Shown in pieces: positions 14,329 to 53,982 of a stretch of DNA of 64,000 bases. A program made the position numbers and the translations under genes. Position 1 is the stretch's first letter; each line of letters starts with the position of its first letter. The notes beneath the pieces are model-generated. The model made no database searches and was not told the DNA's origin. It saw only the letters and a program-made list of their open reading frames with translations. This DNA comes from Candidatus Peribacteraceae bacterium (GTDB lineage Bacteria; Patescibacteriota; Gracilibacteria; Peribacterales; Peribacteraceae): NCBI GenBank assembly GCA_028711445.1, contig JAQTSD010000002.1, positions 27,044 to 91,043 on the forward strand. Reading direction: 5' to 3'.

Positions 14329-14357
14329 TTGGCTCGCAGCCCGATTTCTGCTATAAT
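14329..14357 (+). promoter_or_regulatory. sigma-70 type promoter (-35 TTGGCT, 17 bp, TGc-TATAAT)
   Basis: TTGGCT at 14329-14334, TG at 14349-14350, TATAAT at 14352-14357, ATG at 14384. Confidence 0.55.
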
Positions 14358-14383
14358 TTAAGGAAAATTACACACTCTTCTTT

Positions 14384-16411: not shown

Positions 16412-16432
16412 TCATCCAATTTATTTTTCACT

Positions 16433-33137: not shown

Positions 33138-34076
33138 ATGACTCTTTCTCAAACCATCCTCGGTGTCCGGTTTTCCAACCCCACCGTTCTTGCTTCGGGT
33201 ATCTGGGGGATCACGGCAGCGAGTTGGCGTGCGGCGGCGAGGGTCGGAGCAGGAGGAGTGACGACGAAATCCCTCTGGTTGAAGGAGCATCGCGGCCACG
33301 TCAGTCCGGTGATCATCGCCACGGACCATTGGACACTCAATGCCGTCGGAGTGCCGGATGCCGGCATCGAGAAGGCACGCGAGGAGATCGGGGACTACCA
33401 GAGAGATCCACCTGTTCCTCTGATTGCGAACATCATTGCCGACACGGTCGAAAATTACGGCAAGACCGCTTCGGCGATCGCGAAGCTCAAACCGGAATTT
33501 CTTGAGGTGAATATCAGCTGCCCGAATGTGGAGGATGAGTTGGGCAAGCCCTTCGCCTGTTCTGCGCACGCTGCCGCGGCTGTCACGAAAGCCGTGAAGG
33601 CTGTCAGCGGGAAGATCCCCGTCTTCATTAAGCTCTCGCCGAATGTCGACTCCATCGCCGCGATCGCACAGTCCTGCGCCGCCGCCGGCGCGGACGGCTT
33701 CACCGTCATCAATACCGTCGGGCCGGGCATGGCGATCGACTTGAAGAGCCGCATGCCCATCCTCACCAACCGTGTCGGCGGTCTCTCTGGTCCGGCCATC
33801 AAGCCGATCGCGGTCCGGTGCATTGCGGACGTCTACCGTGCGACGGACGGCGAGCTCCCGATCATCGGGACGGGAGGCGTGATGACCGGCGAAGACGCGC
33901 TGGAACTCATGCTTGCGGGTGCGAGTCTCATCGGTATCGGATCTGCCGTCGGCTATCGAGGTCACAAGGTTTTTTCACTTGTCTGTGCGGAGATGGAGAC
34001 ATGGTGTAAGCGGGAGGGGGTCAGGAAGATCGGGGAGATGGTGGGGGCATTGAAAGATGTACAACATAAGGCATGA
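33138..34076 (+). CDS. pyrD: dihydroorotate dehydrogenase B, catalytic subunit
   Basis: NPTVLASG...GGVTTKS...LNAVGVPDAG...EVNISCPN...FIKLSPN...INTVGPGMAIDL...GGLSGPAIKPIAVR...IIGTGGV. The start (33120 or 33138) is uncertain. Confidence 0.9.
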   Translation: MTLSQTILGVRFSNPTVLASGIWGITAASWRAAARVGAGGVTTKSLWLKEHRGHVSPVIIATDHWTLNAVGVPDAGIEKAREEIGDYQRDPPVPLIANIIADTVENYGKTASAIAKLKPEFLEVNISCPNVEDELGKPFACSAHAAAAVTKAVKAVSGKIPVFIKLSPNVDSIAAIAQSCAAAGADGFTVINTVGPGMAIDLKSRMPILTNRVGGLSGPAIKPIAVRCIADVYRATDGELPIIGTGGVMTGEDALELMLAGASLIGIGSAVGYRGHKVFSLVCAEMETWCKREGVRKIGEMVGALKDVQHKA

Positions 34077-34903
34077 GTACAACTATTCCATTACAGGCGC
34101 GGCTTCCGAAGACTTATAAAATCACTTCCATGAAGCGTGAGACGGAGCAGGTGACATCATGTACATTTGACGTATCGCTTGGATCGCGGCCCGGACAGTT
34201 TGTGATGCTGTGGCTTCCCGGGGTGGAGGAGATCCCCATGAGCGTGGCGAATGATGACGGAAAGCAACTCACAGTTACATTCTTCGCTGTCGGAGAGACT
34301 ACCAAGAAGCTGGCGGGGTTGAAGAAAGGTGATCTGGTCGGACTGCGCGGTCCCTTTGGGACATTCTACGAATGGAAACCTCGTCAGAAGCTCGCACTTG
34401 TCGCGGGTGGTTATGGTGCTGCTCCAATGTATTTCACGGCGAGAGAAGCGGCGAAAGATGGTTGTACACTTTTCATCTTCGTTGGTGCACGAAGTAAAGA
34501 GCATCTCCTCTACCTTTCGGCGTTTAAGAAATTGCCACGTACGACCTTGTATATTTCAACCGATGATGGCTCACAGGGGTTTAAAGGTTTCAATGTGCAA
34601 TTGCTGGAGAAGATGCTCAAAGAGGGCAAGCAAGCCCTTACAATCGACCAGATCTTCGCCTGCGGACCCGAACGGATGCTTAAGGCCGTCTCAGATCTCT
34701 CCTTCAGGAAAAAGATTCTCAGCCAACTCTCGTTGGAGCGTTACATGAAGTGCGGTTTCGGCCTGTGCGGCAACTGCGTCGTCGACCCGCTCGGTATCCG
34801 CCTCTGTATCGATGGACCAGTTGTGAAGAATGATCTTGCGCGCAAGATCACGGAATTCGGGAAGTATCATCGGGATGAACTGGGGAGAAAGAGAGTGTTG
34901 TAG
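34073..34903 (+). CDS. pyrK: dihydroorotate dehydrogenase electron transfer subunit
   Basis: FAD/NAD-binding fold (RPGQFVMLWLPG...EIPMSV; LVAGGYGAAPM). C-terminal 2Fe-2S ligands MKCGFGLCGNCVVD. ATGA overlap with pyrD. Confidence 0.9.
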   Translation: MSTTIPLQARLPKTYKITSMKRETEQVTSCTFDVSLGSRPGQFVMLWLPGVEEIPMSVANDDGKQLTVTFFAVGETTKKLAGLKKGDLVGLRGPFGTFYEWKPRQKLALVAGGYGAAPMYFTAREAAKDGCTLFIFVGARSKEHLLYLSAFKKLPRTTLYISTDDGSQGFKGFNVQLLEKMLKEGKQALTIDQIFACGPERMLKAVSDLSFRKKILSQLSLERYMKCGFGLCGNCVVDPLGIRLCIDGPVVKNDLARKITEFGKYHRDELGRKRVL

Positions 34904-34933: not shown

Positions 34934-36073
34934 TCACGTGCGAATTTTTCGATCCAGAGCAAGAATGATCTCGATCACCTGCTCGACTCCTTTGAGATAC
35001 GTCTTCTTTTCCATCTTCTCTTCAAGCGAATGTGTAGCAAAGCCATTACTTGCGCCGAGTGTGACGGTTGGAATGCCGCGTGCAAGGGAAACATCACCGT
35101 CTGTATTGCCAATCTTGAAAAACGGTCTGATGCCGAGGGATCGTTGCACCTTCCTTGCGGTAGTGCAGAGGAGGTGATTCTTTGGCATACTTGCTGCTTT
35201 TGTCATGGAGAGCATCGTGAGTTTGAACGTCACGCCGCCTTTCTTGTGCGTGCGGAGCACTCTGTGAAAAAGTTGTACGAGAGCGTTGATATTCTTCTGC
35301 CTCTCCGCGCGGAATTCTAGAAGCATCTTCGCTTCGCCGGGAATGGCATTGATACTCTTCCCTCCCTGAATTGCTGTCACATTGTACGTCGTATCCTTCG
35401 GTCGAGTGATCTTCGACAGATCGTGGATGATGGAGGAAAGGATGACGACGGCATTCGGCTCGCCGAAGTTGCGCCAGCTGTGCGCCCCTTTCTGCTTGGC
35501 AATCACCGAGAAATCTGCGCGGTACTGTCCCACACACGCATTCGTCACACGTCCAATATCGTGGCTCTCGATATTTACCACATGAGAGATAATTTTTTCA
35601 TATTTTGTGATGATTCTCTTCATGCCCCGTTTGGCACCCAGCCCCTCTTCCCCGACCGTGAAGACAACGAGATAGTTCTGCTCGAGAGGAATCTTCACAT
35701 CTCGCACAAATTTCAGAAATGTCAGGAGTGCAGTCACTCCCGCAGCATTATCACAGATACCGTGAGCGTGCAGAAATGTCGCGTCCTCTCGTACTCTGAT
35801 GGGTGACGGAGTATCGCAAGCCGTGTCTGCATGAGCACAGAGGAGAATGAACTTCTTCTGCTTGGGATGTGTGATGAGAAAGCCGATTGCATTGCCTTCA
35901 GCGTCTCTATGTACGTTCTTTAAGCCGAAGGAAGAAAGGATCTTCATGAGGTATCGGGTCCTCCTCTCTTCATGAAAAGTGGGAGACGGTATCTGGCAGA
36001 TAGTTTTCAGAAGTCGAAAAACATCTCCCCGGGATTCCCGGAGGAATGCACGGGTGGATGGGACGATTGTCAT
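34934..36073 (-). CDS. M20 family metallopeptidase
   Basis: LCAHADTA (metal-binding His/Asp), ICDNAAGV, VFTVGEEGLGAKRG (catalytic Glu-Glu), and a C-terminal GNTDG...GIPTVTLG. Confidence 0.8.
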   Translation of the reverse strand: MTIVPSTRAFLRESRGDVFRLLKTICQIPSPTFHEERRTRYLMKILSSFGLKNVHRDAEGNAIGFLITHPKQKKFILLCAHADTACDTPSPIRVREDATFLHAHGICDNAAGVTALLTFLKFVRDVKIPLEQNYLVVFTVGEEGLGAKRGMKRIITKYEKIISHVVNIESHDIGRVTNACVGQYRADFSVIAKQKGAHSWRNFGEPNAVVILSSIIHDLSKITRPKDTTYNVTAIQGGKSINAIPGEAKMLLEFRAERQKNINALVQLFHRVLRTHKKGGVTFKLTMLSMTKAASMPKNHLLCTTARKVQRSLGIRPFFKIGNTDGDVSLARGIPTVTLGASNGFATHSLEEKMEKKTYLKGVEQVIEIILALDRKIRT

Positions 36074-36253
36074 CGGTGAAACTCTATGCGATGAGAAGAG
36101 AGATGGTCAAGGTAAGAACTGATCAAAGACGAAGTTCTCAGAAAGAAACCAGTGTTTTTTCGAGACAAATTAGGTTTGACATTCGGCATTGGTGGTATCA
36201 AGATGCCTCTTTCCCGGCGCACCACCATTATTATGTTATCTTTCCGAAGAAAG

Positions 36254-37132
36254 ATGGCTGGGCTAACGATTTCCGATCTCCTCAAGCGGAAAGGTCCTGT
36301 CGAGGTGATCGGTTGCCACAGCCCTCTTTCGGGGAAGATTGCCGAGTCTGTCGGGTTTCAGGCACTCTGGCTCAGTAGCCTGGAACTCTCCGCTCTCAAC
36401 GGGGTTCCGGATGCGAATTTTCTCACCATGTCCGAAAATTTGGATATGGTGCGCAACGTTTGCCAAGCAGTATCCATCCCTGTCATTGCGGATTGCGACA
36501 GCGGCTACGGGAACGAGTTGAATGTCTATCGTATGGTACAGCTCTACGAACAGGCGGGTGTGAGTGGGATATGTCTTGAAGATAACGTGTATCCCAAAAA
36601 ATGCAGCTTCTACGAAACGAGTGCGGATGAAGTAGTCACTCCTGAAGAGCATGCCAGACGTATCGCTGCGGCAGTGCAAGCTCGTCACAATGGCCTCTTC
36701 ATCATTGCAAGAACCGAGGCGTTCATTCGTAACCTTGGTCTCAAGGAGGCATTGCATCGCGCATCCGTGTATGAGAAGGCGGGGGCCGACGCAATCTTGG
36801 TACACTCCAAGAAGAAAACAGACGAAGATCTCGTTGAGTTCGTAAAGGCTTGGAATGGCAAGGTTCCTCTTGTTTGCGTGCCGACGACCTATAATCAGTA
36901 TTCCTCCTCCGAGCTCTTCGAGCGCGGCTACAAGATCATCATTTTCGCCAATCATGGTCTCCGCGCCAGCATTAATGCGATGAAAGAGGCATTTGCGCTT
37001 ATAAAGGAGAAGCATCGTACCAAAGATCTCGACGATCAGATCGCATCACTACAAGATGTCTTCGAACTCACAGATGTCGACGCAATGCAGCAACTCATTG
37101 CATCTTTCAACCGCTCTCATGACGTACGCTGA
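36254..37132 (+). CDS. PEP mutase / isocitrate lyase superfamily enzyme, PEP-mutase-like with non-canonical active-site motif
   Basis: Collinear with PEP mutase as I recall it: GFQALWLSSLELSA..GVPDAN, DCDSGYGN, ILVHSKKKTDEDLVEFVKAW, FANHGLRAS. The signature reads EDNVYPKKCS instead of EDKxxxxxNS. Confidence 0.75.
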   Translation: MAGLTISDLLKRKGPVEVIGCHSPLSGKIAESVGFQALWLSSLELSALNGVPDANFLTMSENLDMVRNVCQAVSIPVIADCDSGYGNELNVYRMVQLYEQAGVSGICLEDNVYPKKCSFYETSADEVVTPEEHARRIAAAVQARHNGLFIIARTEAFIRNLGLKEALHRASVYEKAGADAILVHSKKKTDEDLVEFVKAWNGKVPLVCVPTTYNQYSSSELFERGYKIIIFANHGLRASINAMKEAFALIKEKHRTKDLDDQIASLQDVFELTDVDAMQQLIASFNRSHDVR

Positions 37133-37508
37133 ATGTAAATCTCAGGGTTTTGATTTTATCGTCGGCGTTCCCTGTTCATCGCTCAAGCAGTTCATCGAGG
37201 ATCTGCAGAGAGACGAACCCGGGCGATACATCCCTGTTCAACGTGAAGACACGGCGGTCGCTCTCGCAGTCGGCGCTTTCTTTGCTGGCAAGAAACCCCT
37301 CGTATTCCTCCAAAACAGCGGTCTCGGACATATCGTGAACATCGTTTCCTCCCTTTTGATTCCCTACGAGATTCCCATCCACTTTCTCGTCACCATGCGC
37401 GAGATGCCTTTCGAACATACGCACATGTACAAGATCACGAAGCCACTTCTCTCCCTTCTTGGCATTGAATCTCGCACGTTTCTCTTCGATGCCAGCTCCC
37501 ATGTTTGA
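37119..37508 (+). CDS. TPP-dependent 2-oxoacid (phosphonopyruvate/sulfopyruvate-type) decarboxylase, alpha subunit
   Basis: FDFIVGVPCSSLKQFI...PVQREDTAVALAVGAFFAGKKPLVFLQNSGLG is a ComD/Ppd N-terminal (PYR) domain pattern. Overlaps the stop of the mutase-like gene. Confidence 0.75.
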   Translation: MTYAECKSQGFDFIVGVPCSSLKQFIEDLQRDEPGRYIPVQREDTAVALAVGAFFAGKKPLVFLQNSGLGHIVNIVSSLLIPYEIPIHFLVTMREMPFEHTHMYKITKPLLSLLGIESRTFLFDASSHV

Positions 37509-37974
37509 AATGACGCGATTGCAGGCAGTTCGTTCGGTGCTCGATACACTGACTGATGAGCTGCTTATTGTCACAACCGGCTTTCTCTCACGCGATGTCT
37601 TTCATCTGCGGGATCGCAAAGAAAATTTTTACATGTGCGGTTCCATGGGGAATGCGTATCCCATCGGTATGGGGATTGCACTGGGCAGTCCGGAGCGGAC
37701 CATTACAGTCCTTTCCGGCGATGGAGCGGCACTCATGAGTCTTGGAAGTTTGGTGCTCGGAAACAGTCTCAAGTTGCCAAATCTGTGGCATATCATCATT
37801 GATAACAAGAAGTATGCTTCGACGGGGGGACAGCCGACGTGCAGTGATGGCATCGACTTTACACAGTTCCACAATACGCGGGTCATTCATGTGGATCATG
37901 ATGAGCCTGCATCCCCCCGCATCACACTTGATCCTGTCGAGATTGCTCGCCGGTTCCGTTTCTGCATCCGATGA
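37501..37974 (+). CDS. TPP-dependent 2-oxoacid decarboxylase, beta subunit
   Basis: GSMGNAYPIGMGIAL...VLSGDGAALMSLGSLV...IIIDNKKYASTGGQ is the TPP-binding GDG-x(24-27)-N motif (ComE/Ppd C-terminal half). ATGTTTGA overlap with the alpha subunit. Confidence 0.8.
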   Translation: MFEMTRLQAVRSVLDTLTDELLIVTTGFLSRDVFHLRDRKENFYMCGSMGNAYPIGMGIALGSPERTITVLSGDGAALMSLGSLVLGNSLKLPNLWHIIIDNKKYASTGGQPTCSDGIDFTQFHNTRVIHVDHDEPASPRITLDPVEIARRFRFCIR

Positions 37975-39392
37975 CCAGGGGAACACTCATCAGTGGCAAG
38001 TGGACGGTCTCGTTGCGGGCACGCGAAGTCATGAACCCGTTTTCGGGGGAGAAAGTGGGGGAAGTACCCTTACTTGAGCGAGAGCAAGTCATCCATGCCA
38101 TCGAAGATGCGGCTACATTCCACTCGTCGCTTACTCCATATGAGCGCTTCGTGATTCTGCGGAATGCGGCGAATATGGTTATGGAGAGAAAAGATGAAAT
38201 CGCGTGCCTCATTTCTTCGGAATCAGGACTGGCGTTGAAAGATACACGACATGAGGTGGAGAGAACGCATAATGTATTACTTCTGAGTGCCGAAGAAGCC
38301 AAGCGACAGCGGGGAAGTGTGTATCAATCGGATGTTGTTCCCCAGACGACCGGACGGGTGGCATTCACCATCCGGGAACCTGCGGGTCTGATTCTTGCAA
38401 TCACGCCGTTCAATCATCCCATGAATCAAGTGGCACATAAGATCGGGCCGGCGATTGCAATGAACAATACTGTTCTATTGAAGCCGTCGCTGAAGACGCC
38501 ACTCTCTGCCATCCGTCTTACAGAGATTCTCCTCGAAGCGGGTCTTCCACCGCGTATGCTGTCTGTTCTGACGCTCGACGTGATGGAACATGCACGCTTT
38601 CTTCTCTCACATCCTGCGATCGACATGGTGTGTTTTACCGGTAGTACGGAAAGCGGAGAGAAAGTACTCAAGGAAACCGGTGTGAAGAAAACTCTTATGG
38701 AACTGGGAGGTAATGACGTATGTATTCTCTGTGAAGATGCAGATGTTTCATCTCTCATCGATATGATCCTCATTGGTGGTCTGGGCAATTCCGGTCAACG
38801 GTGTACGTCGATCAAGAGACTGCTCTGCCACCGTTCCATCGCCGATGTTGTTGCGACTTCTTTGGGAGAAGCCGTCTCCCGTTTATGTGCCGGCGATCCC
38901 TTGCGGGAGGACACGGACATCGGGACGGTGATCGACGAAGAGGCGGCGATGACGATTGAACGCCGCATCCAGCAAGCATGCGCCATGGGGGCGAAGCTCC
39001 TCATAGGAGGGAGAAGAAAAGGTGCGCTCATCGAACCGACTCTGGTGGATTACATTCGGCCCGATATGGAATTGGTGCAGAAGGAGACGTTTGGGCCCGT
39101 TATCCCTCTCATCCGTTTCGATTCCGATGACGAGGCAATCAGGATGTGCAACGACACTCCTTTCGGATTGCAATCGGGCGTATGTACGAATGATCTTCGC
39201 AGAGCGATGCGTTATGTGCAGGGCATCCGCGCCGGCGCGGTCCATGTCAATCAGGCCCCGGGCTATCGTGTCGAATCCTGGCCGTTTGGCGGGATCAAGA
39301 AGAGCGGGTTTGGAAAAGAAGGTGTCGAACGAGCGTGTCTTGAAATGAGTACGGAGAAGCTTATATCCCTTCCTTTTCCTCCTTTTGCATGA
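37971..39392 (+). CDS. NAD(P)-dependent aldehyde dehydrogenase
   Basis: ITPFNHP, FTGSTESG, and MELGGND (catalytic Glu). GNSGQRCTS contains the catalytic Cys. EETFGPV. ATGA overlap with the upstream gene. Confidence 0.9.
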   Translation: MTRGTLISGKWTVSLRAREVMNPFSGEKVGEVPLLEREQVIHAIEDAATFHSSLTPYERFVILRNAANMVMERKDEIACLISSESGLALKDTRHEVERTHNVLLLSAEEAKRQRGSVYQSDVVPQTTGRVAFTIREPAGLILAITPFNHPMNQVAHKIGPAIAMNNTVLLKPSLKTPLSAIRLTEILLEAGLPPRMLSVLTLDVMEHARFLLSHPAIDMVCFTGSTESGEKVLKETGVKKTLMELGGNDVCILCEDADVSSLIDMILIGGLGNSGQRCTSIKRLLCHRSIADVVATSLGEAVSRLCAGDPLREDTDIGTVIDEEAAMTIERRIQQACAMGAKLLIGGRRKGALIEPTLVDYIRPDMELVQKETFGPVIPLIRFDSDDEAIRMCNDTPFGLQSGVCTNDLRRAMRYVQGIRAGAVHVNQAPGYRVESWPFGGIKKSGFGKEGVERACLEMSTEKLISLPFPPFA

Positions 39393-40714
39393 AGACCGTT
39401 CAGGAAATCATTAGGGCTGGGCGAGATGTGGAGGACCGCCTCGGTTGCGCACTCTTTCCAGATCTGCGTCTCGAGGATCTCGGTTGCCTTTCCATCGAGG
39501 ATTTACGACGTTGCTACCACAGAGAGATCGAGAGCATCATTACTCTTCACGGTTTGCTTCAATCGGGGATGGCACCGGCAGATCTTTCTTCCGTTGTGCA
39601 AACGATCAGCATCCACGGGAGGGAGCGCCCCGGAAGCCGGAGGGAAATCCTGGGTTTTCCCGTGAAAGCGATTGGTTCGAACATTCGCAGACAGGATATC
39701 GATTGGAATCAATTCACTTGTGAGCAATCCGGCGTGTGCCGCGAAGGGGATATCGTTATCGCCCGCGCTCTCTCGAGCAGGGGATCGATCAATCAACTGG
39801 AAGATCAAGCCGGCCGTGAAGTGCGGATCTTCGAAGGAGATCACTTCATGACGGTAATGGGGAATCGCCACTCCGGGACATCCGAGTATGGAGAACTGAC
39901 GGATGGGCAAATGGAGTTGCAGCCAGATACCGAAGTGGATCTTCTCTGCCATGGAGGTATTCTTGGTCATGGCATATGTATTCCGCGCAGCAGAGCAGTG
40001 CAGACCTTCTTCAAGGTGCACGTGGCTGCAATTCTCAGAAATGGCGGCCGCAATCTCAATCTTCTGGATCTGTATCCGGCGTGGGATAAGGAGATGCTGC
40101 CGTCCGCACCTATCATCTTCAACTGCGGCACATCGGCTGAGATCGGAAAGACGACATCTTCCTCCTCGATTATCCGAGCGCTGAAAAGAATGGGGAAGCG
40201 TGTCGGAGCGGCGAAGCTGGCCGGGACCGGCCGATATCGCGATTTACTTTCGATGCGCGATGCCGGTGCCGACTTGTACTTCGACTTCCCGGATGTGGGA
40301 TTGCCGTCAACATACACAAGTCCGTCCCGGTCATACCCGGCTGCTGTTACGCTTCTCAATAAGTTGAATCGTGGGAAGGTCGACGTGGTCGTTGCCGAAA
40401 TGGGGGGCGATATCATCGAGGCAAACATTCCTTCCGTTCTTCAGTCTCCGGAAATGATGCGTTATGCGAATGGCATCGTGCATTCATCCGCCGATATTCT
40501 TGGCATTCTCGGCTCATTGCAGCGGTATCGCGACTTTGGGGTGCAAGTGCCTGTCATGCTCACACTTCCGAAAGACCGCAACGATGCAGGAACGCGGGAG
40601 CGGCTTCAACAAGAGCATCTTTCGGCCTTCGATGTCATGAATATGCGGGAGTGCGATCAGGTGGTGGGAGCCCTCCTTCGCTGCCGCGAGGGGGAATCGA
40701 TATTTCCTGTATAA
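39389..40714 (+). CDS. hypothetical protein with C-terminal P-loop-like domain (GTSAEIGKTT)
   Basis: 441 aa. Walker-A-like NCGTSAEIGKTTSS, followed by VVVAEMGGD. This resembles the dethiobiotin-synthase/DUF1611-type nucleotide-binding fold. Family not recognised with certainty. Confidence 0.55.
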   Translation: MKTVQEIIRAGRDVEDRLGCALFPDLRLEDLGCLSIEDLRRCYHREIESIITLHGLLQSGMAPADLSSVVQTISIHGRERPGSRREILGFPVKAIGSNIRRQDIDWNQFTCEQSGVCREGDIVIARALSSRGSINQLEDQAGREVRIFEGDHFMTVMGNRHSGTSEYGELTDGQMELQPDTEVDLLCHGGILGHGICIPRSRAVQTFFKVHVAAILRNGGRNLNLLDLYPAWDKEMLPSAPIIFNCGTSAEIGKTTSSSSIIRALKRMGKRVGAAKLAGTGRYRDLLSMRDAGADLYFDFPDVGLPSTYTSPSRSYPAAVTLLNKLNRGKVDVVVAEMGGDIIEANIPSVLQSPEMMRYANGIVHSSADILGILGSLQRYRDFGVQVPVMLTLPKDRNDAGTRERLQQEHLSAFDVMNMRECDQVVGALLRCREGESIFPV

Positions 40715-40745
40715 TGCCGTACTTCTTCTTTCCCACTTTTGCACC

Positions 40746-41768
40746 ATGGAATTGAGAGGTTCTGACATTCTCACAATGGATCAGTTCGATCGGGAAGATC
40801 TCCGTCGTATTTTCGATACGGCTGCAGAGATGGAGGTGTATGCATCGAGACAAAAAATGACACGCGTTCTCGAGGGGGCAGTCTTGGCGAATCTGTTCTT
40901 CAGTTCGAGCACGCGTTCGCGCATCAGTTTTGGCTCAGCATTCAATCGTCTCGGTGGAGCAGTACGCGATACGACGAGCATTGACGAGTCGTCCATTGCC
41001 AAAGGGGAATCTCTCGAAGCGACTGCCCGTGTAGTCAGTGGTTACTCTGATGCGATTGTTCTGCGTTACCCGGAGGAAGATGCAGCCAAAATGGTTGCCG
41101 ATGCATCACCGCTGCCCGTGATCAACGGAGGAGACGGATCCAACGAGCACCCCACACAAGGGCTCCTCGATATCTTCACTATCCTGAAGGAGCGCAAGAT
41201 GTCTCTTGACGATCTTGACGGTCTCGTCGTTGCCGTTGGAGGAGATCTGAAGTACGGGCGTGCTGCCCACTCGATTGTCAAAGGACTCTCCATTTTTCGT
41301 AACATTTGCTACAAACTCATTGCCACGGATGAACTGCAAATGCCTGACAAGATTGTGGAACTCCTTCGCAACAGGGGGCATCAGGTCTTGCAGACCAGCG
41401 ATCTTTCTGAGGGGATCAAAGATGTGGACATCGTTTACATGACACGCAATCAAGAGGACAGGATGCCTCGTGAACTCGCTACGCACTTGCGCGGGAAGAT
41501 CTTCCTCGATCGTCGCACTTATGAGCGCTACGCCCGTCCCGATACCACGATCATGCACCCCCTCCCGATTGACATTCGGCCGGGTGCACAGGAAATCAAG
41601 CCTGATCTCTACGATCACCCGAACTTCGCGGTCTATCGTCAAACGGATAACGGTATGCCGGTGCGGATGTCGATTTATGTACATCTCCTCGGGGTCGTTG
41701 ACAGAGTACATGACACGGTCAGAGATGCGTTTTGGTTCCGACCGGATCGTACGGATTCCCATAGATGA
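40746..41768 (+). CDS. pyrB: aspartate carbamoyltransferase catalytic chain family protein
   Basis: LANLFFSSSTRSRISF (STRTR variant), AIVLRYP, NGGDGSNEHPTQ, GDLKYGRAAHS, YMTRNQEDR, HPLP...YRQTDNGMPVRMSI. Confidence 0.8.
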   Translation: MELRGSDILTMDQFDREDLRRIFDTAAEMEVYASRQKMTRVLEGAVLANLFFSSSTRSRISFGSAFNRLGGAVRDTTSIDESSIAKGESLEATARVVSGYSDAIVLRYPEEDAAKMVADASPLPVINGGDGSNEHPTQGLLDIFTILKERKMSLDDLDGLVVAVGGDLKYGRAAHSIVKGLSIFRNICYKLIATDELQMPDKIVELLRNRGHQVLQTSDLSEGIKDVDIVYMTRNQEDRMPRELATHLRGKIFLDRRTYERYARPDTTIMHPLPIDIRPGAQEIKPDLYDHPNFAVYRQTDNGMPVRMSIYVHLLGVVDRVHDTVRDAFWFRPDRTDSHR

Positions 41769-42232
41769 TTATGCATTTTGATGTTCCCGGTGTCGGCCCA
41801 ATAGATATTGATACGATTCTTCTCGATCTGAATGGGACGCTTCGTGATAAAAAAAAGTTTTTGGTGCCGGGTGTGAACACGCGCATAGCAAGGTTGCGGG
41901 AACTGGTACGTCTCATCCTTCTCTCAGGCGATACGCGGGGGGATGCAGCCGTTCTGGCAGAAGAACTTGGCATCGAATTTATCCGTACTCCGACGGCAGC
42001 AGATAAAGGTGCGATTGTTGATCGGCTTGGGGCAGAACATTGTGCCGGGATTGGGAACGGTCTCATCGATCTTACTATGGTTGAAAGGGCTCGTATTGGT
42101 ATTGCCGTTCTCCAAGGCGAGGGGGCTCACATGAAAACATTGCATGCTGCCGATATCGTCGTGACCAGTGTGAACGACGCACTCGATTTTTTTCTCGATG
42201 AGAAGAGCTTGATCGCCACTTTACGGGCATAG
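41765..42232 (+). CDS. HAD-superfamily hydrolase, soluble P-type-ATPase-like (COG4087-type)
   Basis: ILLDLNGTL (DxxGT variant), LLSGDTRG, AGIGNGLID...GIAVL. 155 aa. ATGA overlap with the ATCase stop. Confidence 0.7.
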   Translation: MIMHFDVPGVGPIDIDTILLDLNGTLRDKKKFLVPGVNTRIARLRELVRLILLSGDTRGDAAVLAEELGIEFIRTPTAADKGAIVDRLGAEHCAGIGNGLIDLTMVERARIGIAVLQGEGAHMKTLHAADIVVTSVNDALDFFLDEKSLIATLRA

Positions 42233-42342: not shown

Positions 42343-42393
42343 ATGACCGGTGGCGGTAAAGGCGGGTGTGGCGGCTGCTGTGGCTGCTGCTAA
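42343..42393 (+). CDS. 16-aa Gly/Cys-only peptide MTGGGKGGCGGCCGCC (mini-gene copy 1)
   Basis: My own translation; the ORF is below the track cutoff. ATG, reading frame, stop and the C-terminal CCGCC are conserved in the second copy at 46204..46260. It has its own promoter and terminator. Confidence 0.55.
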   Translation: MTGGGKGGCGGCCGCC

Positions 42394-42430
42394 CCCCTTC
42401 GGGGCGAGTGTCGCCCACATGAAATCCTCA

Positions 42431-42451
42431 GGCGGCCGCAAGCCGCCTTTT
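42431..42451 (+). terminator. rho-independent terminator of mini-gene copy 1
   Basis: GGCGGC-CGCAA-GCCGCC followed by TTTT. Confidence 0.75.
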
Positions 42452-45117: not shown

Positions 45118-45669
45118 TTACAAAATATATGGAATAAACATTCTCACCTTCTTCTTGTATGCGGCATATGACTCCGGAAATATCGTAGCCAGCAAGGTCT
45201 CTTCCTTCCGTGCACGCAAGTACAGACCAATGAGGAGGGCGAAGAACAGGAGAAAACCCTCCAGATGGCGGTACCATAGGATGGTTCCAAATGTCAGACA
45301 GGAGAATCCCGTGTAAATGGGATGGCGAACGAAGCGGTACGGACCGGACCGGACAAGCTCGTGACGCTCTTTGAGCGTGAGATCCGCGCTCCAGTTGCGA
45401 CCGAGACTTGTTCGCGCCCAAATTTCAATACCCGTACCAAGAATGACAAATACCAAAGCCACGTCATCAAGTACAAACGAATCTGTCCATAGCAACAACC
45501 CCGTATATCCGAGACGGGCGAGAATAGTGTACGCGATGATGAGAAGATAAAGAAAAATTCTCTGCCATTTCCAGCTTTGTCTTACGAGAGTCCTCTTCGC
45601 TGAGAATGCGGCGAAGGAGGCGTCCAAGAACGGATGCACACTCAAAGTCTTCGTCGGTGCGCGGAGCAA
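45118..45669 (-). CDS. isoprenylcysteine carboxyl methyltransferase (ICMT/PEMT) family membrane protein
   Basis: LVRSGPYRFVRHPIYTGF...RKEETLLATIFPESYAAYKKKV is the characteristic ICMT-family C-terminal motif. The first ~26 codons are antisense to the pyrK fragment, so the true start is uncertain. Confidence 0.75.
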   Translation of the reverse strand: MLRAPTKTLSVHPFLDASFAAFSAKRTLVRQSWKWQRIFLYLLIIAYTILARLGYTGLLLWTDSFVLDDVALVFVILGTGIEIWARTSLGRNWSADLTLKERHELVRSGPYRFVRHPIYTGFSCLTFGTILWYRHLEGFLLFFALLIGLYLRARKEETLLATIFPESYAAYKKKVRMFIPYIL

Positions 45670-46072
45670 AGATCACCTCCTCTACCTCCCGGCATTCAAA
45701 AAATTACCGCGCACGACCCTGCACGTCTCGACCGATGACGGGTCGCAGGGATTCAAGGGTTTCAATGTGCAGCTGTTGGAGCGGTCACTCAAGGAGAAGA
45801 AATCGGCATTCGTCGATCAGATCTTCGCCTGCGGGCCGGAGCGGATGCTGAAAGCGGTCTCCGATCTCTCCTTCGAGATGAAGATCCCCAGCCAACTCTC
45901 TCTGGAACGGTACATGAAGTGCGGTTTCGGCCTGTGCGGCAACTGCGTGGTCGATCCGCTGGGTATCCGCCTCTGCACCGATGGGCCGGTGGTGCGTAAT
46001 GACATCGCGCGAAAGATCACGGAATTCGGGAAGTATTGTCGGGACGATCTTGGCCGAAAGCATTCATTTTAG
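45590..46072 (+). pseudogene. pyrK: 5'-truncated, diverged second copy of the pyrK 3' half
   Basis: My in-frame translation is ...LFAENAAKEASKNGCTLKVFVGARSKDHLLYLPAFKKLPRTTLHVSTDDGSQGFKGFNVQLLE...QIFACGPERMLKAVSDLSF...LSLERYMKCGFGLCGNCVVDPLGIRLC...ITEFGKY...*. It aligns with residues ~125-276 of the intact PyrK (34073..34903). No N-terminal FAD domain and no start context. Confidence 0.8.
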
Positions 46073-46419: not shown

Positions 46420-48108
46420 ATGGCGAAGCGGACTCCTGACCATGAACCGGGCCAACCCAAGAAGAAGAAATTTGGACCTCATCTGCGTTTGGAGGCTCTC
46501 CTTGCGAAGGAGTGCACTATCGAAACGAGCAGGCTTTCTGAGTGCAATCAGCTCGATATTTGGAGACACCAGAGAGAACGACTGATTTGTGACTTGGCAT
46601 TCATTGGTCTCGATCAGGGCGACCATTCCGAAATAACAGTTGCCGATCTTCATGATCGCGAAGAACTCATTGAGGCTCTTCTGGATCTTGTCCATAGAAA
46701 CCGTTTCAACCCCGATGAAAGCAATGATGTGTTGGGGATGGATCGCCATGCAATCGAGTGTGAGTGCGGTATCAAGTTCGGGAAAAGGTTCTGGTCAATG
46801 CGAGAGCCATTCATCGAGAACTGGCAAGGACGGTACCGTCCTGATGCGGCGCGGCGCGAACTATTGAAACGCGTGATCGAGGAGGAGAAGCAAACGGAAG
46901 AGAAAGATCAATGGCCGCTGGAAGACCGTGTATGGGACTGGGCACAGTGGTACTTCCGCGGTGGATGCCCGCGAGAGGTGGAAGTTCCGGAGGATCAAGA
47001 TCCCGAAGAAGTTCTTCGCATACTTGATCGGGATTGTGCATTCATCGAGCAGCTCTCTTTATCAGAGTCTGATTGCGGAGAGGCGATTCGATCATTGATA
47101 ATTCAATTTCTCAGTGGCGAATACCCGATTGTCACCAGCGAAGAGGATCCTGTATCTGAGGAGGCCATGCTCGGAGTCGCCGAAAGGATTGCACGGGCTC
47201 CGGATGCAGCTTTCCTTGGCGAAGGTCTTCGTGGTATTGCAGTTTCAAATGTGATGAAGCGGTATCGGGAGTATCTTGCACAGGGTCTCAGTTTCGAAGC
47301 GGAAGAGGCGAAAAGAGGAGAGGAGCAGCAGGCAGAGGATCGCATGCTTCTTCTCAGTCGCGAACGAGCGCAGAGAGAATATGATGTCGAATCTGCTTTT
47401 CTACAGAGTTTGAATCTTCCCGATTATGAGGCGCAGCAATGGCCGGAATTACTTCGGTGTGCTCTTTTACGTGGTGCAATACATATCGATCCAGCCTACC
47501 GTGAACGCGTTCATGGCCATGTGCGATGTTTCATCGGGAGAATGCCATGGCCCAAAGAGGAGCTCCCGGGAGCCGATCCATGGGGTCCATTAGGGCAAAT
47601 GCTGGCGAGCTATTGGCATGGTCATTACTACCCCGACAACTTACGGTGGAGGATTCTCCAGGAAGAATGTGCGAAGCTTCCACCGGGTTTTTCTGAAAGA
47701 AGGGGCGGGCTCTCGTCCATTGTTTCTACCTATCTATTACATGTCATGTTTATGGAAGGGTGTGCGAACGATGGTGCCAAGGTTGGTGCTTCTCAGGATC
47801 CGGAGATGCTCGAAATGGCCTATGCAAATGATATGCAACTCATTCGCAATCTCGGACTTCCGGATGACCTCTTCCGGGAAGCGGAATGGGGATATAACGA
47901 ATGGCTGCTTGGGGGGAATTTTATGCTCGCCGCCGATCGCGAATTGCCGGAGGATAGGGATAAACTTGCGAGACGACTGGCTGCTCGTCTGGAGGAGAGT
48001 GGAGGAGATCCTGCACAAGTCAGTTCATACTTCGTGAGCCAGATCCTTCAGGAGTTTTGTGAACATTGGCTCGCAGTTTCCAAGCGTCCAGCGCCTAGGA
48101 AGGAATGA
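46420..48108 (+). CDS. hypothetical acidic protein (562 aa)
   Basis: Long uninterrupted ORF behind a near-consensus promoter. It is rich in Glu/Asp/Trp/Cys, has no TM segment, and I recognise no family. Confidence 0.6.
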   Translation: MAKRTPDHEPGQPKKKKFGPHLRLEALLAKECTIETSRLSECNQLDIWRHQRERLICDLAFIGLDQGDHSEITVADLHDREELIEALLDLVHRNRFNPDESNDVLGMDRHAIECECGIKFGKRFWSMREPFIENWQGRYRPDAARRELLKRVIEEEKQTEEKDQWPLEDRVWDWAQWYFRGGCPREVEVPEDQDPEEVLRILDRDCAFIEQLSLSESDCGEAIRSLIIQFLSGEYPIVTSEEDPVSEEAMLGVAERIARAPDAAFLGEGLRGIAVSNVMKRYREYLAQGLSFEAEEAKRGEEQQAEDRMLLLSRERAQREYDVESAFLQSLNLPDYEAQQWPELLRCALLRGAIHIDPAYRERVHGHVRCFIGRMPWPKEELPGADPWGPLGQMLASYWHGHYYPDNLRWRILQEECAKLPPGFSERRGGLSSIVSTYLLHVMFMEGCANDGAKVGASQDPEMLEMAYANDMQLIRNLGLPDDLFREAEWGYNEWLLGGNFMLAADRELPEDRDKLARRLAARLEESGGDPAQVSSYFVSQILQEFCEHWLAVSKRPAPRKE

Positions 48109-48235
48109 CCAAGGCAATAATTCGTAGAGGCAATAAGCTCTGCCACTAGTGGTTCGCGACGGAATTTCCTCTATACTATGCGATGTGTCATCCTGAGCCT
48201 GTCGAAGGGTCGACACACCGTTGTTCTTTGAGCTA

Positions 48236-48310
48236 GGCCCTATCGTCTAATGGTTAGGACATCAGGTTTTCAGCCTGAGAATCGGGGTTCGATTCCCCGT
48301 GGGGCTGCCA
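48236..48310 (+). tRNA. tRNA-Glu (anticodon UUC)
   Basis: Manual cloverleaf fold. Acceptor stem GGCCCTA/TGGGGCT (two G-T wobbles), D arm GTCT/GGAC, and anticodon stem TCAGG/CCTGA with loop TTTTCAG (anticodon TTC). T arm CGGGG-TTCGATT-CCCCG, with an encoded CCA. Confidence 0.9.
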
Positions 48311-48460
48311 TTCTGCGTCGCAAGCTATGCAGAATGGCAGGGGGGTGGTCTGCGAAGCTCTCTGCTTTGCGTAGCTTCGCAGCGCAAAGCGCGGAGTATG
48401 ACCTTGGAGTTGCTGGAATAAATATTCCGGTTGATCAGCTATAACGCTATAGTCTGAAGC

Positions 48461-51400
48461 ATGTCTAGTGATTTGATGGAAGATCCCATTCTAAACTCGC
48501 CCTACAATGAGCCGAGCAGACATTTTGGTGCTGACGAGAGAGGTCTGACGCAAGAAGTAGTAGAGAGTCGCCGTCCAAGTAGTTTCTACATTCCAGTCCC
48601 GAAAGCAAAGACGAAGCAGAAGCAACTCGACTTACATCTTGCCGAGGGTGCCTTCGGGAGTGAGTTGCAAAAAGAGAATGAATTTATTAACAAGGTCAGA
48701 GCGAAGATAAAGGAGTGGCGAGCGATCGGTTACTCAGGAATCACCAAGGCCTCGCGCGATCTGCTTATGTATTGGAAAGATGAATCGAGAGATAACAAAT
48801 TATTCTATTGCCAAATCGAAGCATTAGAAACATTGATGTACATCAATGAAGTCGCGGAGAAGTCTGGGGACAGTTGGATTATCAATGAACTCAAGAAAGC
48901 AAATGCAGACGCCAATCCTGGTCTGTATCGATTGGCTTTCAAAATGGCTACAGGATCGGGCAAGACTGTTGTCATGGCAATGATCATTGCCTATCACACA
49001 CTGAATAAAATCCGCTATCCGCAGGACACGCGTTTCACAGATGCATTCGTCATTGTGACGCCGGGCATCACGATTCGTGATCGTCTCAATGTTCTTCATC
49101 CAAATGATCCACAGAACTACTACCGCTTACGCAACATTGTTTCCTATCAAGACCTAGAACTCTTACAACAGGCCACGGTTCACATAACAAATTTCCATCA
49201 GCTAGAACAACGACAGAACCAACGTTTTCAGGTGGGAGGTGTATTGAAAGCCGCCAAGCTGCTTAAGGAGGAGGCAATGAAAGAAACCCCCAGTGCGATG
49301 GTGAATCGTGCATTTAAGAGTGTTCTCTCCAAATCGCGTGTGCTCGTGATAAACGATGAGGCTCATCACTGTTACCGCGAGAAACCCAGTGAACAGAAAC
49401 TCTCAGGTGAAGAGCGGAAGGAGGCTGATGAGAATAACAAGGCAGCGCGGGTCTGGATCAGTGGATTGGAAGCACTAGCGCAAAAGATCAATATCAATGC
49501 GGTTATTGATCTCTCTGCCACACCGTACTTCCTCAGTGGTTCTGGTTACGCCGAGGGCACATTATTTCCATGGACTACGTTCGATTTCTCCCTGTTGGAT
49601 GCTCTTGAATGTGGAGTTGTGAAGATCCCACGCCTTCCCATCGAATCAGACACCATCTCGATTGATGATGAGCCAGAATTTCGTAATCTGTGGCTCCACG
49701 TTCGCGATAATTTGCCAAAAAAAGGATTGAAAACTGGAAACTACGATCTCTCTGTACTTATCCTTCCAACGAAGCTACAAGAGGCATTGGAGTCCCTCTA
49801 TGGAAACTATGAGAAGTATCATCGGGAGTATGAGAAACAGAAAAAAGGAAATCCTGCGGTGATGCCACCGGTGATGATTGTCGTATGTAATAACACGACA
49901 GTCTCAGAGCTTCTGTACCGCTGGATTGCAGGATATGAGAGGGAGACTGCAAGTGGTCAGATTAAGATTGAGAAAGGTAATCTCGAAATATTCCGAAACG
50001 AAGATGGCGTTCGTTTCTTTGATCGGCCTAGCACCCTCCTCATAGATAGTGCCCAGATTGAGAGTGGAGAGAAGATTAGTGATGAATTCAAAAAGATCTT
50101 CACCAAAGAGATCGCTGATTTCCATAAGGAATACCACAAACGTTTTCCGGGTCGTGAAGATCCAACCGATGAAGAGCTCTTGCGTGAGGTGATGAATACC
50201 GTAGGTAAACCGGGGAAGCTTGGAGAAAACATCAAGTGTGTTGTTTCAGTATCCATGCTTACCGAGGGATGGGATGTGAATACTGTCACTCACGTTCTCG
50301 GCGTTCGCGCATTCTCAACACAGCTCCTTTGTGAACAGGTCGTGGGCCGCGCTTTGAGACGAGTGGATTACAGCGTTGATGACTCAACAGGGCTTCTTTC
50401 TCCTGAGTACGCAGAGGTATATGGGGTGCCATTTAGCTTCCTGAAAGCAACGGGGCCCACGCCACCACAGCCGCCGAAGGTAATCCACAGAGTACGTTCT
50501 CTTCCTGAGCGAGAGGATCAGTACCAAATTACCTTTCCACGTGTTGAAGGGTATCGATATGAACTTAACGAAACCAAGCTCTCTGCTCACTTCACCGAGG
50601 AATCAAAAACCATTATTGAGAATGAACCTACTGAAGTGACCTTAGGTGGTCTCATTGGCAAAGAGGAAAAAGAGATGCTCGAAAAAATTAAAGAGCGCCG
50701 TGAGGGAGAGGTCATCATTCGATTGGTACAGAGTCTGCTAAAACGTTATTACACAGATGCAGATGGCAGTGAAAAGTATTGGCTGACACCAAAATTGATG
50801 AAGATTACTGAGGAATATGTGAAGCACCATGTCATCCTGAAAGACCGCATGGTAATTGGTTATCTCTCCGTCGGAGCGTATTTCTCTGGTGCACTCACAA
50901 AGATTCAACAGGCTATTGTGACGGATAATTTAGAGAGCCAAAAAGACAGGAAGGTACTGCCGATTCTGGCCCCTTACGACACTCTTGGATCAACGCGTTA
51001 TGTAGATTATCTGACAACGAAAGAGGTTCGCGAAACGGTGAAGAGTCACATCAATTATGTGGTCGCTGATACGCAAGAGTGGGAGCAGGGGGTTGCGAAG
51101 AAGCTGGAACAGATGCCAGAGGTTCTAGCCTATGTAAAAAACCAGAATTTGGGCTTCACCATTCCCTATGAACATCAGGGCGCAGCTCATCAATATATTC
51201 CCGACTTCATAGCTGTCCTGAAATTGCCTGATGGAAGTAAGTTGAATTTGCTCATCGAAGTAACAGGGAAAAAAGACGACAAGAAGGCGACGAAGATCAA
51301 GACGGCCCGTGAGCTTTGGGTACCTGCGGTCAATAACAATGGGAAATTTGGAGTTTGGGCAGTGATTGAAATCCAAGACATCCATGAGACACAGAATCTC

Positions 51401-53946: not shown

Positions 53947-53982
53947 TACCCAACTTCTTTATCATATTATGAAACCAAAAAT

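Follow-up and report, generated by a model that had tools for sequence, protein, structure and literature searches.

What would an operon make that joins the enzymes of a phosphonate pathway to an aspartate transcarbamoylase (ATCase)? This question is raised by a 64,000-nucleotide stretch of DNA, referred to here as the window, from Candidatus Peribacteraceae bacterium (assembly GCA_028711445.1, contig JAQTSD010000002.1, positions 27,044 to 91,043), in which seven co-directional open reading frames (ORFs) occupy positions 36254–42232 of the + strand, each beginning with ATG and containing no internal stops. The original prediction, made from the letters of the window, described these genes as an operon for a possible phosphonoacetate-type pathway and speculated that the product could resemble N-phosphonoacetyl-L-aspartate (PALA). 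Based on family matches and gene context, it is well supported that the block at 34934–42232 is a phosphonoacetate-branch phosphonate biosynthetic cluster in which a new signature enzyme is recurrently partnered by a transcarbamoylase. The fuller reading, in which this block would direct the synthesis of a phosphonoacetate-derived small molecule via a ligase step catalyzed by a P-loop enzyme and would carry the ATCase as a target-type copy, is given about an even chance of being correct.

Organization and conservation of the cluster

The seven genes form one operon. The junctions consist, in gene order, of overlaps of 14, 8, 4, and 4 nt, a 31-nt gap (40715–40745), and a final overlap of 4 nt. 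The original prediction had counted six consecutive start/stop overlaps and a gap of 32 nt; with the count corrected to five overlaps and one gap of 31 nt, its conclusion of a single operon stands. The seven ORFs, their boundaries, and their domain calls were borne out by an ORF check and by Pfam and NCBIfam. An upstream gene that was absent from the earlier gene list, which encodes an M20-family metallopeptidase (34934–36073, − strand; Pfam M20_dimer, Peptidase_M20, and Peptidase_M28), is divergently transcribed and is part of the conserved unit.

The same block is shared by four other Peregrinibacteria/Peribacteria contigs (loci L013–L016), in which a divergent M20 gene is followed by the genes for phosphoenolpyruvate (PEP) mutase (PepM), the N-terminal and C-terminal thiamine pyrophosphate (TPP)-binding subunits of a decarboxylase, an aldehyde dehydrogenase (ALDH), the P-loop protein, the ATCase, and a haloacid dehalogenase (HAD)-superfamily hydrolase. 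Because this order and the divergent M20 gene recur in L013–L016, the arrangement is not a chance result of ORF calling. Amino-acid identity between the window and these loci is 57–85%, and dN/dS is 0.04–0.11 where dS is estimable (not saturated); the block is under purifying selection across L013–L016 and the window. In the window, pyrG, pyrD, and pyrK lie on the same strand 1.3–4.8 kb upstream of the cluster, with the M20 gene between them and the operon, and an otsA-otsB fusion lies downstream. The genes pyrG, pyrD, pyrK, and otsAB are absent near L013–L016 and every other related locus, and consequently the conserved unit extends from M20 through HAD and the pyr neighborhood of the window is incidental. 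Since no related locus has pyrG, pyrD, or pyrK nearby, this neighborhood was ruled out as an explanation for the ATCase.

The wider distribution of the cluster was followed through the P-loop gene. Thirty-one non-redundant loci were collected by scanning one genome per GTDB species and by looking up contigs, and co-occurrence was counted for genes lying no more than 7 kb from the P-loop gene. The associations hold in at least four gene orders. PepM and a phosphonopyruvate decarboxylase (Ppd)-type TPP enzyme are each present at 27 of the 31 loci, a member of the aspartate/ornithine transcarbamoylase family at 24 (in several gene orders and phyla), ALDH at 21, and a luciferase-like oxygenase replacing ALDH at three, while M20 peptidases and TauE/SafE-type exporters are found at 10 loci each. 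The four loci without a separate PepM are L042 (at a contig edge), L004 (a PepM::P-loop fusion), L018 (with little upstream sequence), and L029. The linkage of the transcarbamoylase at 24 loci, with a pyr context at none, supports the earlier proposal of a functional tie between the ATCase and the cluster.

Hosts of the P-loop loci include Peregrinibacteria, Kaiser-, Roizman-, Davies-, Gottesman-, and Saccharibacteria, proteobacterial metagenome-assembled genomes, Pseudomonas sp. RIT288, P. fluorescens EK007-RG4, Rummeliibacillus pycnus, Rathayibacter toxicus, and, from the archaeal DPANN group, one Nanobdellati archaeon and one Micrarchaeota archaeon. The gene order is PepM-Ppd-Ploop-TauE-ALDH-ATCase in Proteobacteria, M20-Ploop-PepM-Ppd-ALDH in several lineages of the candidate phyla radiation (CPR), and TauD-Ploop-Ppd-ATCase-aminotransferase-PepM in L045 and L042. 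Another order, Ppd-Ploop-Lux-OTCase-like-PepM-ATP-grasp (OTCase, ornithine transcarbamoylase), is found in a Firmicute, an Actinobacterium, and the metagenomic locus L011. This Rummeliibacillus/Rathayibacter/L011 variant (L011, L035, and L037) combines P-loop, PepM, and Ppd genes with those of an SsuD-like flavin monooxygenase, ATP-grasp ligases, and an OTCase-derived paralogue, and looks like a phosphonopeptide cluster. L011 additionally contains major facilitator superfamily (MFS) and FemAB-like genes and adjoins recombinase, resolvase, and relaxase genes. In Pseudomonas sp. RIT288 (L019, 4704–16168), a phage-type integrase gene lies ~1.6 kb upstream of the cluster, which also contains genes for a TauE/SafE-type exporter, a TauD dioxygenase, and a methyltransferase. 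Furthermore, two separate representatives of the family (P0020 and P0344) have PepM and the P-loop domain in one fused protein, and the 939-residue P0215 combines P-loop, methyltransferase, and TauD dioxygenase in one protein. The fusion locus L004–L006, where Ppd is missing and the ALDH is truncated, was treated as possibly degenerate and was not built on. A literature search returned no paper tying the P-loop family or any transcarbamoylase to phosphonate clusters, and the cluster family is previously undescribed and phylogenetically broad (CPR, DPANN, Proteobacteria, Firmicutes, and Actinobacteria).

The P-loop signature enzyme

The signature enzyme of the cluster family is a 441-residue P-loop protein (39389–40714, + strand). 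In a homologue search it is 100% identical to a protein annotated as hypothetical from a Candidatus Peribacteraceae metagenome-assembled genome. The original prediction had described it as a P-loop orphan of unknown family, and this description holds: weak CbiA/BioD P-loop matches are the only ones in Pfam and NCBIfam, and the protein defines a rare family. The bioD model gives 19 bits against a cut-off of 83.3, which places the protein outside BioD, PF07755 (DUF1611) gives no Pfam match on the window protein, and a profile search of the family against PDB sequences yields marginal P-loop matches only. True DUF1611 proteins are distant matches (30–39% identity over about half of the query), and some family members have weak PF07755 or PF01656 matches. 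Among 1.84 billion proteins, the family together with its DUF1611-like relatives numbers 450 representatives (E ≤ 1e-30), and its members carry the public labels 'hypothetical protein', 'DUF1611 domain-containing protein', and 'molybdopterin-guanine dinucleotide biosynthesis protein'. A literature search for DUF1611 together with phosphonate found nothing relevant.

The AlphaFold2 model of the window protein (mean pLDDT 91.4) has three parts: a helical N-terminal extension confined to the Peregrinibacteria proteins, a middle domain rich in beta structure, and, at the C terminus, a Rossmann-like P-loop domain. The top Foldseek match is dethiobiotin synthetase (DTBS; 3of5, E 2.7e-6, target-normalized TM-score 0.57), which covers the C-terminal half only, and lower-ranked fold matches include the SRP/FtsY, MinD/ParA/Soj-type, HypB, and CobB members of the SIMIBI class. 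Foldseek gave no structural match for the beta-rich domain or the helical extension. Alignment with E. coli BioD by hhalign (89% probability) superimposes the P-loop and identifies the invariant K276 as the equivalent of BioD Lys37, and the invariant E337-x-G-G-D resembles, by eye, the E-G-A-G-G motif of BioD. The motifs conserved in an alignment of homologues are GTSAExGKTT, KLAGTGRxRD, DFPDVGLPSTYT, AExGGDIIEANIP, and PKxRN. As modeled, the C-terminal domain resembles a DTBS-like SIMIBI fold with a P-loop and a catalytic-lysine equivalent.

DTBS, CobB/CobQ, and related SIMIBI enzymes use ATP to phosphorylate a carboxylate, carbamate, or carbonyl oxygen, and a C–N bond is then made. Because of the DTBS-like fold and motifs and this shared chemistry, the P-loop enzyme is predicted to be an ATP-dependent carboxyl activator. 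Its carboxyl substrate would be phosphonoacetate, as this is the sole carboxylate made by the neighboring enzymes.

The enzymes leading to phosphonoacetate

The first gene of the operon (36254–37132, + strand; an alternative GTG start is located at 36152) encodes an enzyme of the PepM lineage that is predicted to convert PEP to phosphonopyruvate. The PF13714 match (2e-57) covers profile positions 4–238 of 240, such that the domain spans the whole protein. The mutase scores 273.1 bits on TIGR02320, below the equivalog cut-off of 319.55, and 248.3 bits on the phosphonopyruvate hydrolase (PPH) model TIGR02321 (cut-off 374.4). In the PDB, it matches PPH 2dua at 236 bits and the PepM structures 5unc and 1m1b at 234 and 196 bits, versus at most 129.5 bits for lyases. 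In a neighbor-joining tree, midpoint-rooted and built without a lyase outgroup, the protein is nested among canonical PepMs (5unc, L040, L035, and L011) and PPH. The mutase retains W44, S46, D58, D85, D87, E114, D115, K120, R159, and H190 (Mytilus numbering), and among the catalytic positions compared only K116N and N122C differ (residue roles per PMC7916636).

Field surveys have used the motif EDKX5NS as a filter for PepM (PMC8942020), and a change of Asn122 to Thr is widely regarded as separating hydrolase from mutase (PMC7916636). The corresponding loops are EDK(L/R)FPK(T/V)NS in solved PepMs and EDKTFPKDTS in PPH. Most cluster homologues have EDKx5NS. The window mutase falls in an 'EDN' subclade, within which L038 and L045 keep the N-S pair (EDNx5NS) and L020 and the four other Peregrinibacteria loci have EDNx5C[SA]; motif-based PepM surveys would consequently miss the Peregrinibacteria clusters. 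The window mutase is probably a PepM-lineage enzyme that still makes phosphonopyruvate, although two membership tests (TIGR02320 and EDKX5NS) failed. This assignment is made because of the nesting within the clade, the intact remaining catalytic residues, purifying selection (dN/dS 0.04–0.11 for the mutase gene against its Peregrinibacteria relatives), the unchanged cluster context, and the canonical homologues. As a result, the PEP mutase proposed originally is retained with respect to its clade, and not with respect to the motif or the equivalog cut-off.

Directly 3′ of the mutase gene, two overlapping ORFs encode the TPP N and C binding domains of a split TPP-dependent 2-oxoacid decarboxylase, the alpha subunit (37119–37508, + strand; PF02776) and the beta subunit (37501–37974, + strand; PF02775), which together are predicted to form a phosphonopyruvate decarboxylase. 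The alpha subunit scores 91.8 bits on TIGR03297 (Ppd) versus 88 bits on sulfopyruvate decarboxylase alpha (ComD), and the beta subunit 127.8 bits versus 125.8 bits on sulfopyruvate decarboxylase beta (ComE), with all of these scores below the cut-offs. Because the Ppd and ComDE models score alike, the assignment as phosphonopyruvate decarboxylase rests on context. The next gene (37971–39392, + strand; PF00171 at 3e-136) encodes a PhnY-like ALDH that is predicted to oxidize phosphonoacetaldehyde to phosphonoacetate. Its best NCBIfam match is TIGR03250 (PhnAcAld_DH; 513.9 bits, below the cut-off of 635.65), with SafD as the third-best match, and its best PDB match is PhnY (4i3t, 391 bits; next chain 310 bits). 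The same PhnY equivalog cut-off is exceeded by the orthologue from the Pseudomonas cluster (725.5 bits). For the loci designated type C, the possibility that the ALDH is a ProA-like acyl-phosphate reductase was rejected, as the protein matches lactaldehyde, GAPN, SafD, and PhnY-type models instead. These family matches, with PhnY as the best match of the ALDH, support the route that had been proposed from a PEP mutase through a split decarboxylase and an aldehyde dehydrogenase to phosphonoacetate.

The transcarbamoylase and the accessory hydrolases

The gene that follows the P-loop gene encodes an ATCase catalytic chain of the PRK08192 type (40746–41768, + strand; OTCace_N plus OTCace). The protein scores 274 bits on TIGR00670, above the curated cut-off of 236.95, and 403.9 bits on its closest subfamily model, PRK08192 (cut-off 512). 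In the numbering of the E. coli reference sequence, which was verified against 1ekx, it keeps S52, T53, R54, R105, H134, Q137, R167, R229, Q231, and L267, with T55S as a conservative change. It also has H106Y, E233D, and R269I, and the full set is shared solely by its nearest relative, P0096. The ATCase is the most diverged gene of the block relative to L013/L014 (59% identity versus 66–85%; dN ~0.32 versus 0.10–0.26), which could reflect faster evolution or replacement of that one gene. Relatives at 50–56% identity include the cluster-linked copies of L042 and L045 as well as apparently housekeeping copies, such as the one in a yqgE-ruvX-pyrB arrangement in Leeia oryzae, and a SAR86 copy outside clusters, and the Pseudomonas-type cluster ATCases form a separate clade. 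In Pseudomonas, a housekeeping pyrB-pyrC′ pair is presumably located elsewhere in the genome, so the cluster ATCase copy would be additional.

Other clusters contain a different partner. The transcarbamoylase of the Micrarchaeota locus L040 is a bona fide OTCase (TIGR00658, 373 bits versus a cut-off of 280.85; motifs HCLP and DTWVSMG). The partner in Rummeliibacillus, Rathayibacter, and L011 (type B) is an OTCase-derived paralogue that has the carbamoyl-phosphate motifs (STRT and HPTQ) and an altered acceptor site (HDMP and DTWIDMEN), and the Rummeliibacillus copy scores just below the OTCase cut-offs. Seven of the 31 clusters are without any transcarbamoylase, and this enzyme is consequently dispensable for the core chemistry. 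A closely related ATCase of the T55S clade, 51% identical to that of the window, is found at L044 9001–10044 in a 7.3-Mb genome, where it adjoins MFS_3 transporter and helix-turn-helix regulator genes with no PepM within 9 kb; it could be a stand-alone resistance-type copy.

The M20 protein has one strong match among solved structures, the poly(aspartic acid) hydrolase 7ljh (160.7 bits; next match 47 bits), and its gene has the same divergent position in L013–L016. This match hints at an aspartyl amide as the substrate. The last gene of the operon (41765–42232, + strand; PF00702 at 5.5e-8) encodes a small HAD-superfamily hydrolase and predicted phosphatase, which has weak matches to P-type ATPase segments and resembles a soluble P-type-ATPase phosphorylation domain. 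The gene is kept in L013–L016, and HAD genes of other subfamilies are present in the related clusters L002, L007, and L010.

Proposed pathway and product

By family membership, the PEP-mutase-lineage enzyme would convert PEP to phosphonopyruvate, the split TPP decarboxylase would convert phosphonopyruvate to phosphonoacetaldehyde and thereby pull the unfavorable mutase equilibrium, and the PhnY-like dehydrogenase would oxidize phosphonoacetaldehyde to phosphonoacetate. Next, by analogy with DTBS, CobB/CobQ, and related SIMIBI amidoligases, the DTBS-like P-loop enzyme may transfer a phosphoryl group from ATP to the carboxylate of phosphonoacetate and couple the activated phosphonoacetate to an amine, most simply L-aspartate, which would give PALA or a closely similar compound. 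The ATCase, which is catalytically intact, would serve as the target-type enzyme of the producer, an extra or insensitive copy like argK in the phaseolotoxin cluster; a function as a transferase that uses the activated acyl phosphate would be less likely. The M20 protein, which is poly(aspartate)-hydrolase-like, and the HAD phosphatase may process, mature, or detoxify aspartyl-amide or phosphorylated intermediates. The role of the ATCase as a target copy is slightly preferred because the enzyme is canonical in its catalytic features, lineages alternate between ATCase and OTCase, some clusters have neither, and argK provides a precedent.

A PALA-like compound is a plausible candidate for the product of the cluster. 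It is more tentatively proposed, as a possibility that is on balance doubtful, that N-phosphonoacetyl amino acids of the type of PALA and N-phosphonoacetyl-L-ornithine (PALO) are made naturally by a dedicated DTBS-like ligase, with the pathway carried together with the matching transcarbamoylase in CPR, DPANN, and Pseudomonas. Literature searches found no paper linking PALA or PALO to a natural product or to PepM, and the single match to 'phosphonoacetyl' (flavophos, phosphonoacetyl-CoA) was unrelated.

The kind of system described here, a phosphonate biosynthetic cluster, is known, while its P-loop enzyme family is new and its host range unusual. If the proposed pathway is correct, it defines a cluster family that PepM-motif mining partly misses, and it provides the first functional context for an uncharacterized P-loop family and a strong case for target-guided genome mining, in which phosphonoacetate enzymes located beside an ATCase or OTCase predict PALA-related transcarbamoylase inhibitors. 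Genome-reduced CPR and DPANN symbionts would then retain a specialized antimetabolite pathway, and N-phosphonoacetyl compounds would allow these episymbionts to disturb the pyrimidine or arginine biosynthesis of their hosts or competitors. The hypothesis lends itself to direct testing, as the cluster is present in the culturable strains Pseudomonas sp. RIT288, P. fluorescens EK007-RG4, Rummeliibacillus pycnus X33, and Rathayibacter toxicus DSM 7488.

Weighing of the pathway and its alternatives

Several observations weigh against the pathway proposed above. The loop of the window mutase, EDNVYPKKCS, fails the diagnostic EDKX5NS and places a Cys at Asn122, the position at which a change to Thr is considered to distinguish hydrolase from mutase. 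Profile and tree placement, which had been suggested originally as a check, put the mutase within the PepM clade and left the split Ppd and sulfopyruvate decarboxylase inseparable by score. For every step after phosphonoacetate, the reaction is one that we infer. The conserved residues of the P-loop family have no visible change between ATCase-linked and OTCase-linked clusters, which disfavors an amine substrate that varies with the type of transcarbamoylase. The OTCase-derived paralogue of the Firmicute and Actinobacterial clusters looks, from its acceptor site, biosynthetic rather than like a resistant target, and the window ATCase could be the sole pyrB of the genome. Finally, the loci fall into broadly similar groups in the trees of the P-loop protein and the transcarbamoylase, and the genes for these two proteins often adjoin each other; both observations fit a catalytic partnership too.

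Such a partnership has been considered in a form in which the P-loop protein acts as a kinase on phosphonoacetate, the phosphonoacetyl phosphate that it releases resembles carbamoyl phosphate, and the transcarbamoylase transfers the acyl group to aspartate, ornithine, or another amine, or truly carbamoylates a building block. This division of labor is a serious rival, if an unlikely one, and no other alternative is more probable. In addition to the broad agreement of the two trees, it is favored by the adjacency of the genes in many loci and their pairing across nearly every deep branch of the P-loop tree. The type B enzymes also keep STRT and HPTQ beside a remodeled acceptor site, which indicates a new function, and the constancy of the P-loop residues across cluster types is expected if the substrates are always phosphonoacetate and ATP. 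However, the type A ATCases and the L040 OTCase pass their equivalog cut-offs and keep the residues for the carbamoyl NH2 group and for Asp or Orn (Q137, HPLP/HCLP, R167, R229, and Q231), a pocket for a CH2-PO3 group is not seen in them, and seven of the 31 clusters lack a transcarbamoylase. We know of no transcarbamoylase-fold enzyme with an acyl donor other than carbamoyl phosphate. The least probable of the alternatives has the DTBS/CobQ-like enzyme amidate phosphonoacetate, such that the product is a mimic of carbamoyl phosphate (phosphonoacetamide or a derivative) that acts as a general transcarbamoylase inhibitor, with the cluster carrying whichever transcarbamoylase needs protection. 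CobB/CobQ-type relatives, which are among the fold matches, amidate carboxylates via acyl phosphates, and the same conserved P-loop enzyme is paired with an ATCase in some lineages and an OTCase in others. Phosphonoacetamide is the classical isosteric analogue of carbamoyl phosphate in ATCase crystallography, but it is a weak inhibitor only. Moreover, a glutaminase or ammonia-delivering partner is not seen in the clusters, and the poly(aspartate)-hydrolase-like M20 protein points instead to an aspartyl amide.

The two remaining alternatives place the departure from the proposed ligase pathway elsewhere, either in the mutase or in the ATCase. The original prediction had held a sulfonate or 2-oxoacid pathway to be equally likely, and this is now disfavored. 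In this case the Peregrinibacteria mutase-like enzyme would no longer be a PEP mutase and the operon would handle another 2-oxoacid, such as sulfopyruvate, which ComDE-like and SafD-like enzymes would convert to sulfoacetate. K116N and N122C give a KKC loop reminiscent of isocitrate-lyase superfamily lyases, the EDKX5NS and TIGR02320 tests failed at an enzyme whose position 122 is considered decisive for the reaction outcome, the ComDE models score nearly as well as Ppd, SafD ranks third for the ALDH, and TauE/SafE-family exporters are found in sister clusters. Nonetheless, the mutase is nested in the PepM clade, its nearest relatives have EDN..NS (L038 and L045) and EDK..NS loops in the same cluster context, its other catalytic residues are kept, and the PepM and PPH structures score 196–236 bits, well clear of the lyases. 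PhnY is clearly the best match of the ALDH, strong purifying selection acts over the whole unchanged gene set, and we know of no sulfonate pathway that uses a member of the PEP mutase family. A sulfonate pathway is accordingly quite improbable. It is very improbable that the ATCase is a housekeeping pyrB co-transcribed with an unrelated phosphonate operon, the product of which would be phosphonoacetate or a surface or lipid head group. The ATCase passes its equivalog model and is catalytically intact, its family includes housekeeping-position copies such as that of Leeia oryzae, pyrG, pyrD, and pyrK are located upstream, and no second OTCace-family gene is present among the annotated ORFs of the 64-kb window. 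In contrast, a transcarbamoylase is linked to the cluster in varied gene orders and phyla, including Pseudomonas, and the pyr neighbors are missing from every related locus. The nucleotidyltransferase and CDP-alcohol transferase genes typical of surface phosphonates are absent from the Pfam-annotated related loci, and the cluster consists of eight genes only.

Flanking sequence and other features of the window

Downstream of the operon, a consensus scan located a terminator-like GC-rich hairpin followed by a T run (42430–42448, + strand), ~200 nt 3′ of the HAD gene, that may mark the operon end. The promoter and terminator scans found no more sites in the region than in shuffled sequence, and this hairpin is weak evidence. 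A tiny ORF between the HAD gene and the hairpin (42343–42393) encodes MTGGGKGGCGGCCGCC, with six Cys and eight Gly in 16 residues; a counterpart was sought 3′ of the HAD gene in L013–L016 and was not found. Rfam and tRNA scans gave no match inside the cluster. PADLOC matched none of the cluster proteins, and a known anti-phage system is consequently not indicated.

A partial second copy of pyrK is located at 45609–46072, ~11 kb downstream of the intact gene (34073–34903), to which it is 78% identical over 456 nt. The ORF at 45767–46072 corresponds to the C-terminal 100 residues of pyrK (84% amino-acid identity), and the copy is probably a pseudogene remnant of a duplication. Elsewhere in the window, a 930-residue UvrC-like protein (6955–9747, − strand) has an unusual architecture, in which a GNAT acetyltransferase domain is inserted at ~722–803 between the RNase H-type domain matches PF22920 (473–585) and PF08459 (end 916). 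Three consecutive large ORFs of 456, 675, and 1507 residues at 12831–20956 (+ strand) have no Pfam match at E ≤ 1e-4. The G+C content is 0.43–0.47 at 48000–56000, compared to 0.50–0.59 in the rest of the window. This low-G+C stretch, which begins right after a tRNA-Glu gene (48236–48310) and contains large ORFs at 48461–51463, 51463–53946, and 54523–57018, may be an island integrated at tRNA-Glu.

Comparison with known systems

The cluster shares individual steps with two systems of phosphonate and sulfonate metabolism. Like the PhnW-PhnY-PhnA pathway of 2-aminoethylphosphonate catabolism, it contains a dehydrogenase of PhnY type, here predicted to act on phosphonoacetaldehyde. In contrast to that pathway, it has no PhnW transaminase or PhnA hydrolase, and its direction is biosynthetic because PepM and Ppd are present. 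Similarly, the split TPP decarboxylase family, a SafD-related ALDH, and the TauE/SafE-type exporters of sister clusters recall ComDE and SafD/SafE. Coenzyme M biosynthesis differs in that ComA, ComB, and ComC have no match among the eight cluster genes, which include a PEP-mutase-family enzyme instead, and a cysteate-pathway gene was not found among the annotated ORFs of the window.

The closest biosynthetic parallels are the phosphonoacetate-branch clusters, which include that for O-phosphonoacetic acid serine (Streptomyces sp. NRRL F-525) and the FzmB/FzmG steps of fosfazinomycin, as summarized in PMC8942020 and PMC12723261. Both those clusters and, by prediction, the one described here reach phosphonoacetate by way of PepM, Ppd, and a PhnY-like ALDH. 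Methyltransferase and TauD-type functions that resemble the tailoring by FzmB/FzmG are found in the Pseudomonas relatives and in the P0215 fusion. The differences are in the enzymes, the hosts, and the mutase. The papers searched on those clusters mention no DTBS-like P-loop enzyme, transcarbamoylase, or M20 protein; the hosts there are actinomycetes, as opposed to CPR, DPANN, and Pseudomonas here; and the window mutase is without EDKX5NS, the motif that was used to find those clusters. The P-loop protein itself is similar to DTBS, CobB, the CobQ N-domain, and DUF1611 (PF07755) in its fold, its P-loop (GTxxExGKT), its Lys37-equivalent lysine, and its ExGG(D) motif, and differs from them in its extra beta-rich domain, the helical N-terminal extension of the Peregrinibacteria proteins, and its phosphonate context.

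With respect to the ATCase, the nearest precedent is phaseolotoxin. The Pht/argK toxin cluster of Pseudomonas savastanoi pv. phaseolicola carries a toxin-insensitive ornithine carbamoyltransferase. In both systems a transcarbamoylase is embedded in a cluster whose product, here a predicted one, mimics a transcarbamoylase transition state, and the catalytic residues are kept in the enzyme described here. Phaseolotoxin contains a sulfodiaminophosphinyl group and is paired with an OTCase, whereas the present clusters would make a C–P phosphonate and mostly carry an ATCase, for which insensitivity is hypothetical. PALA and PALO are synthetic bisubstrate inhibitors of ATCase and OTCase, respectively, and are known only as synthetic compounds in the literature searched. 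The cluster combines the predicted enzymes for the phosphonoacetyl half and a ligase-type enzyme with ATCase, the target of PALA, and, in L040, with OTCase, the target of PALO.

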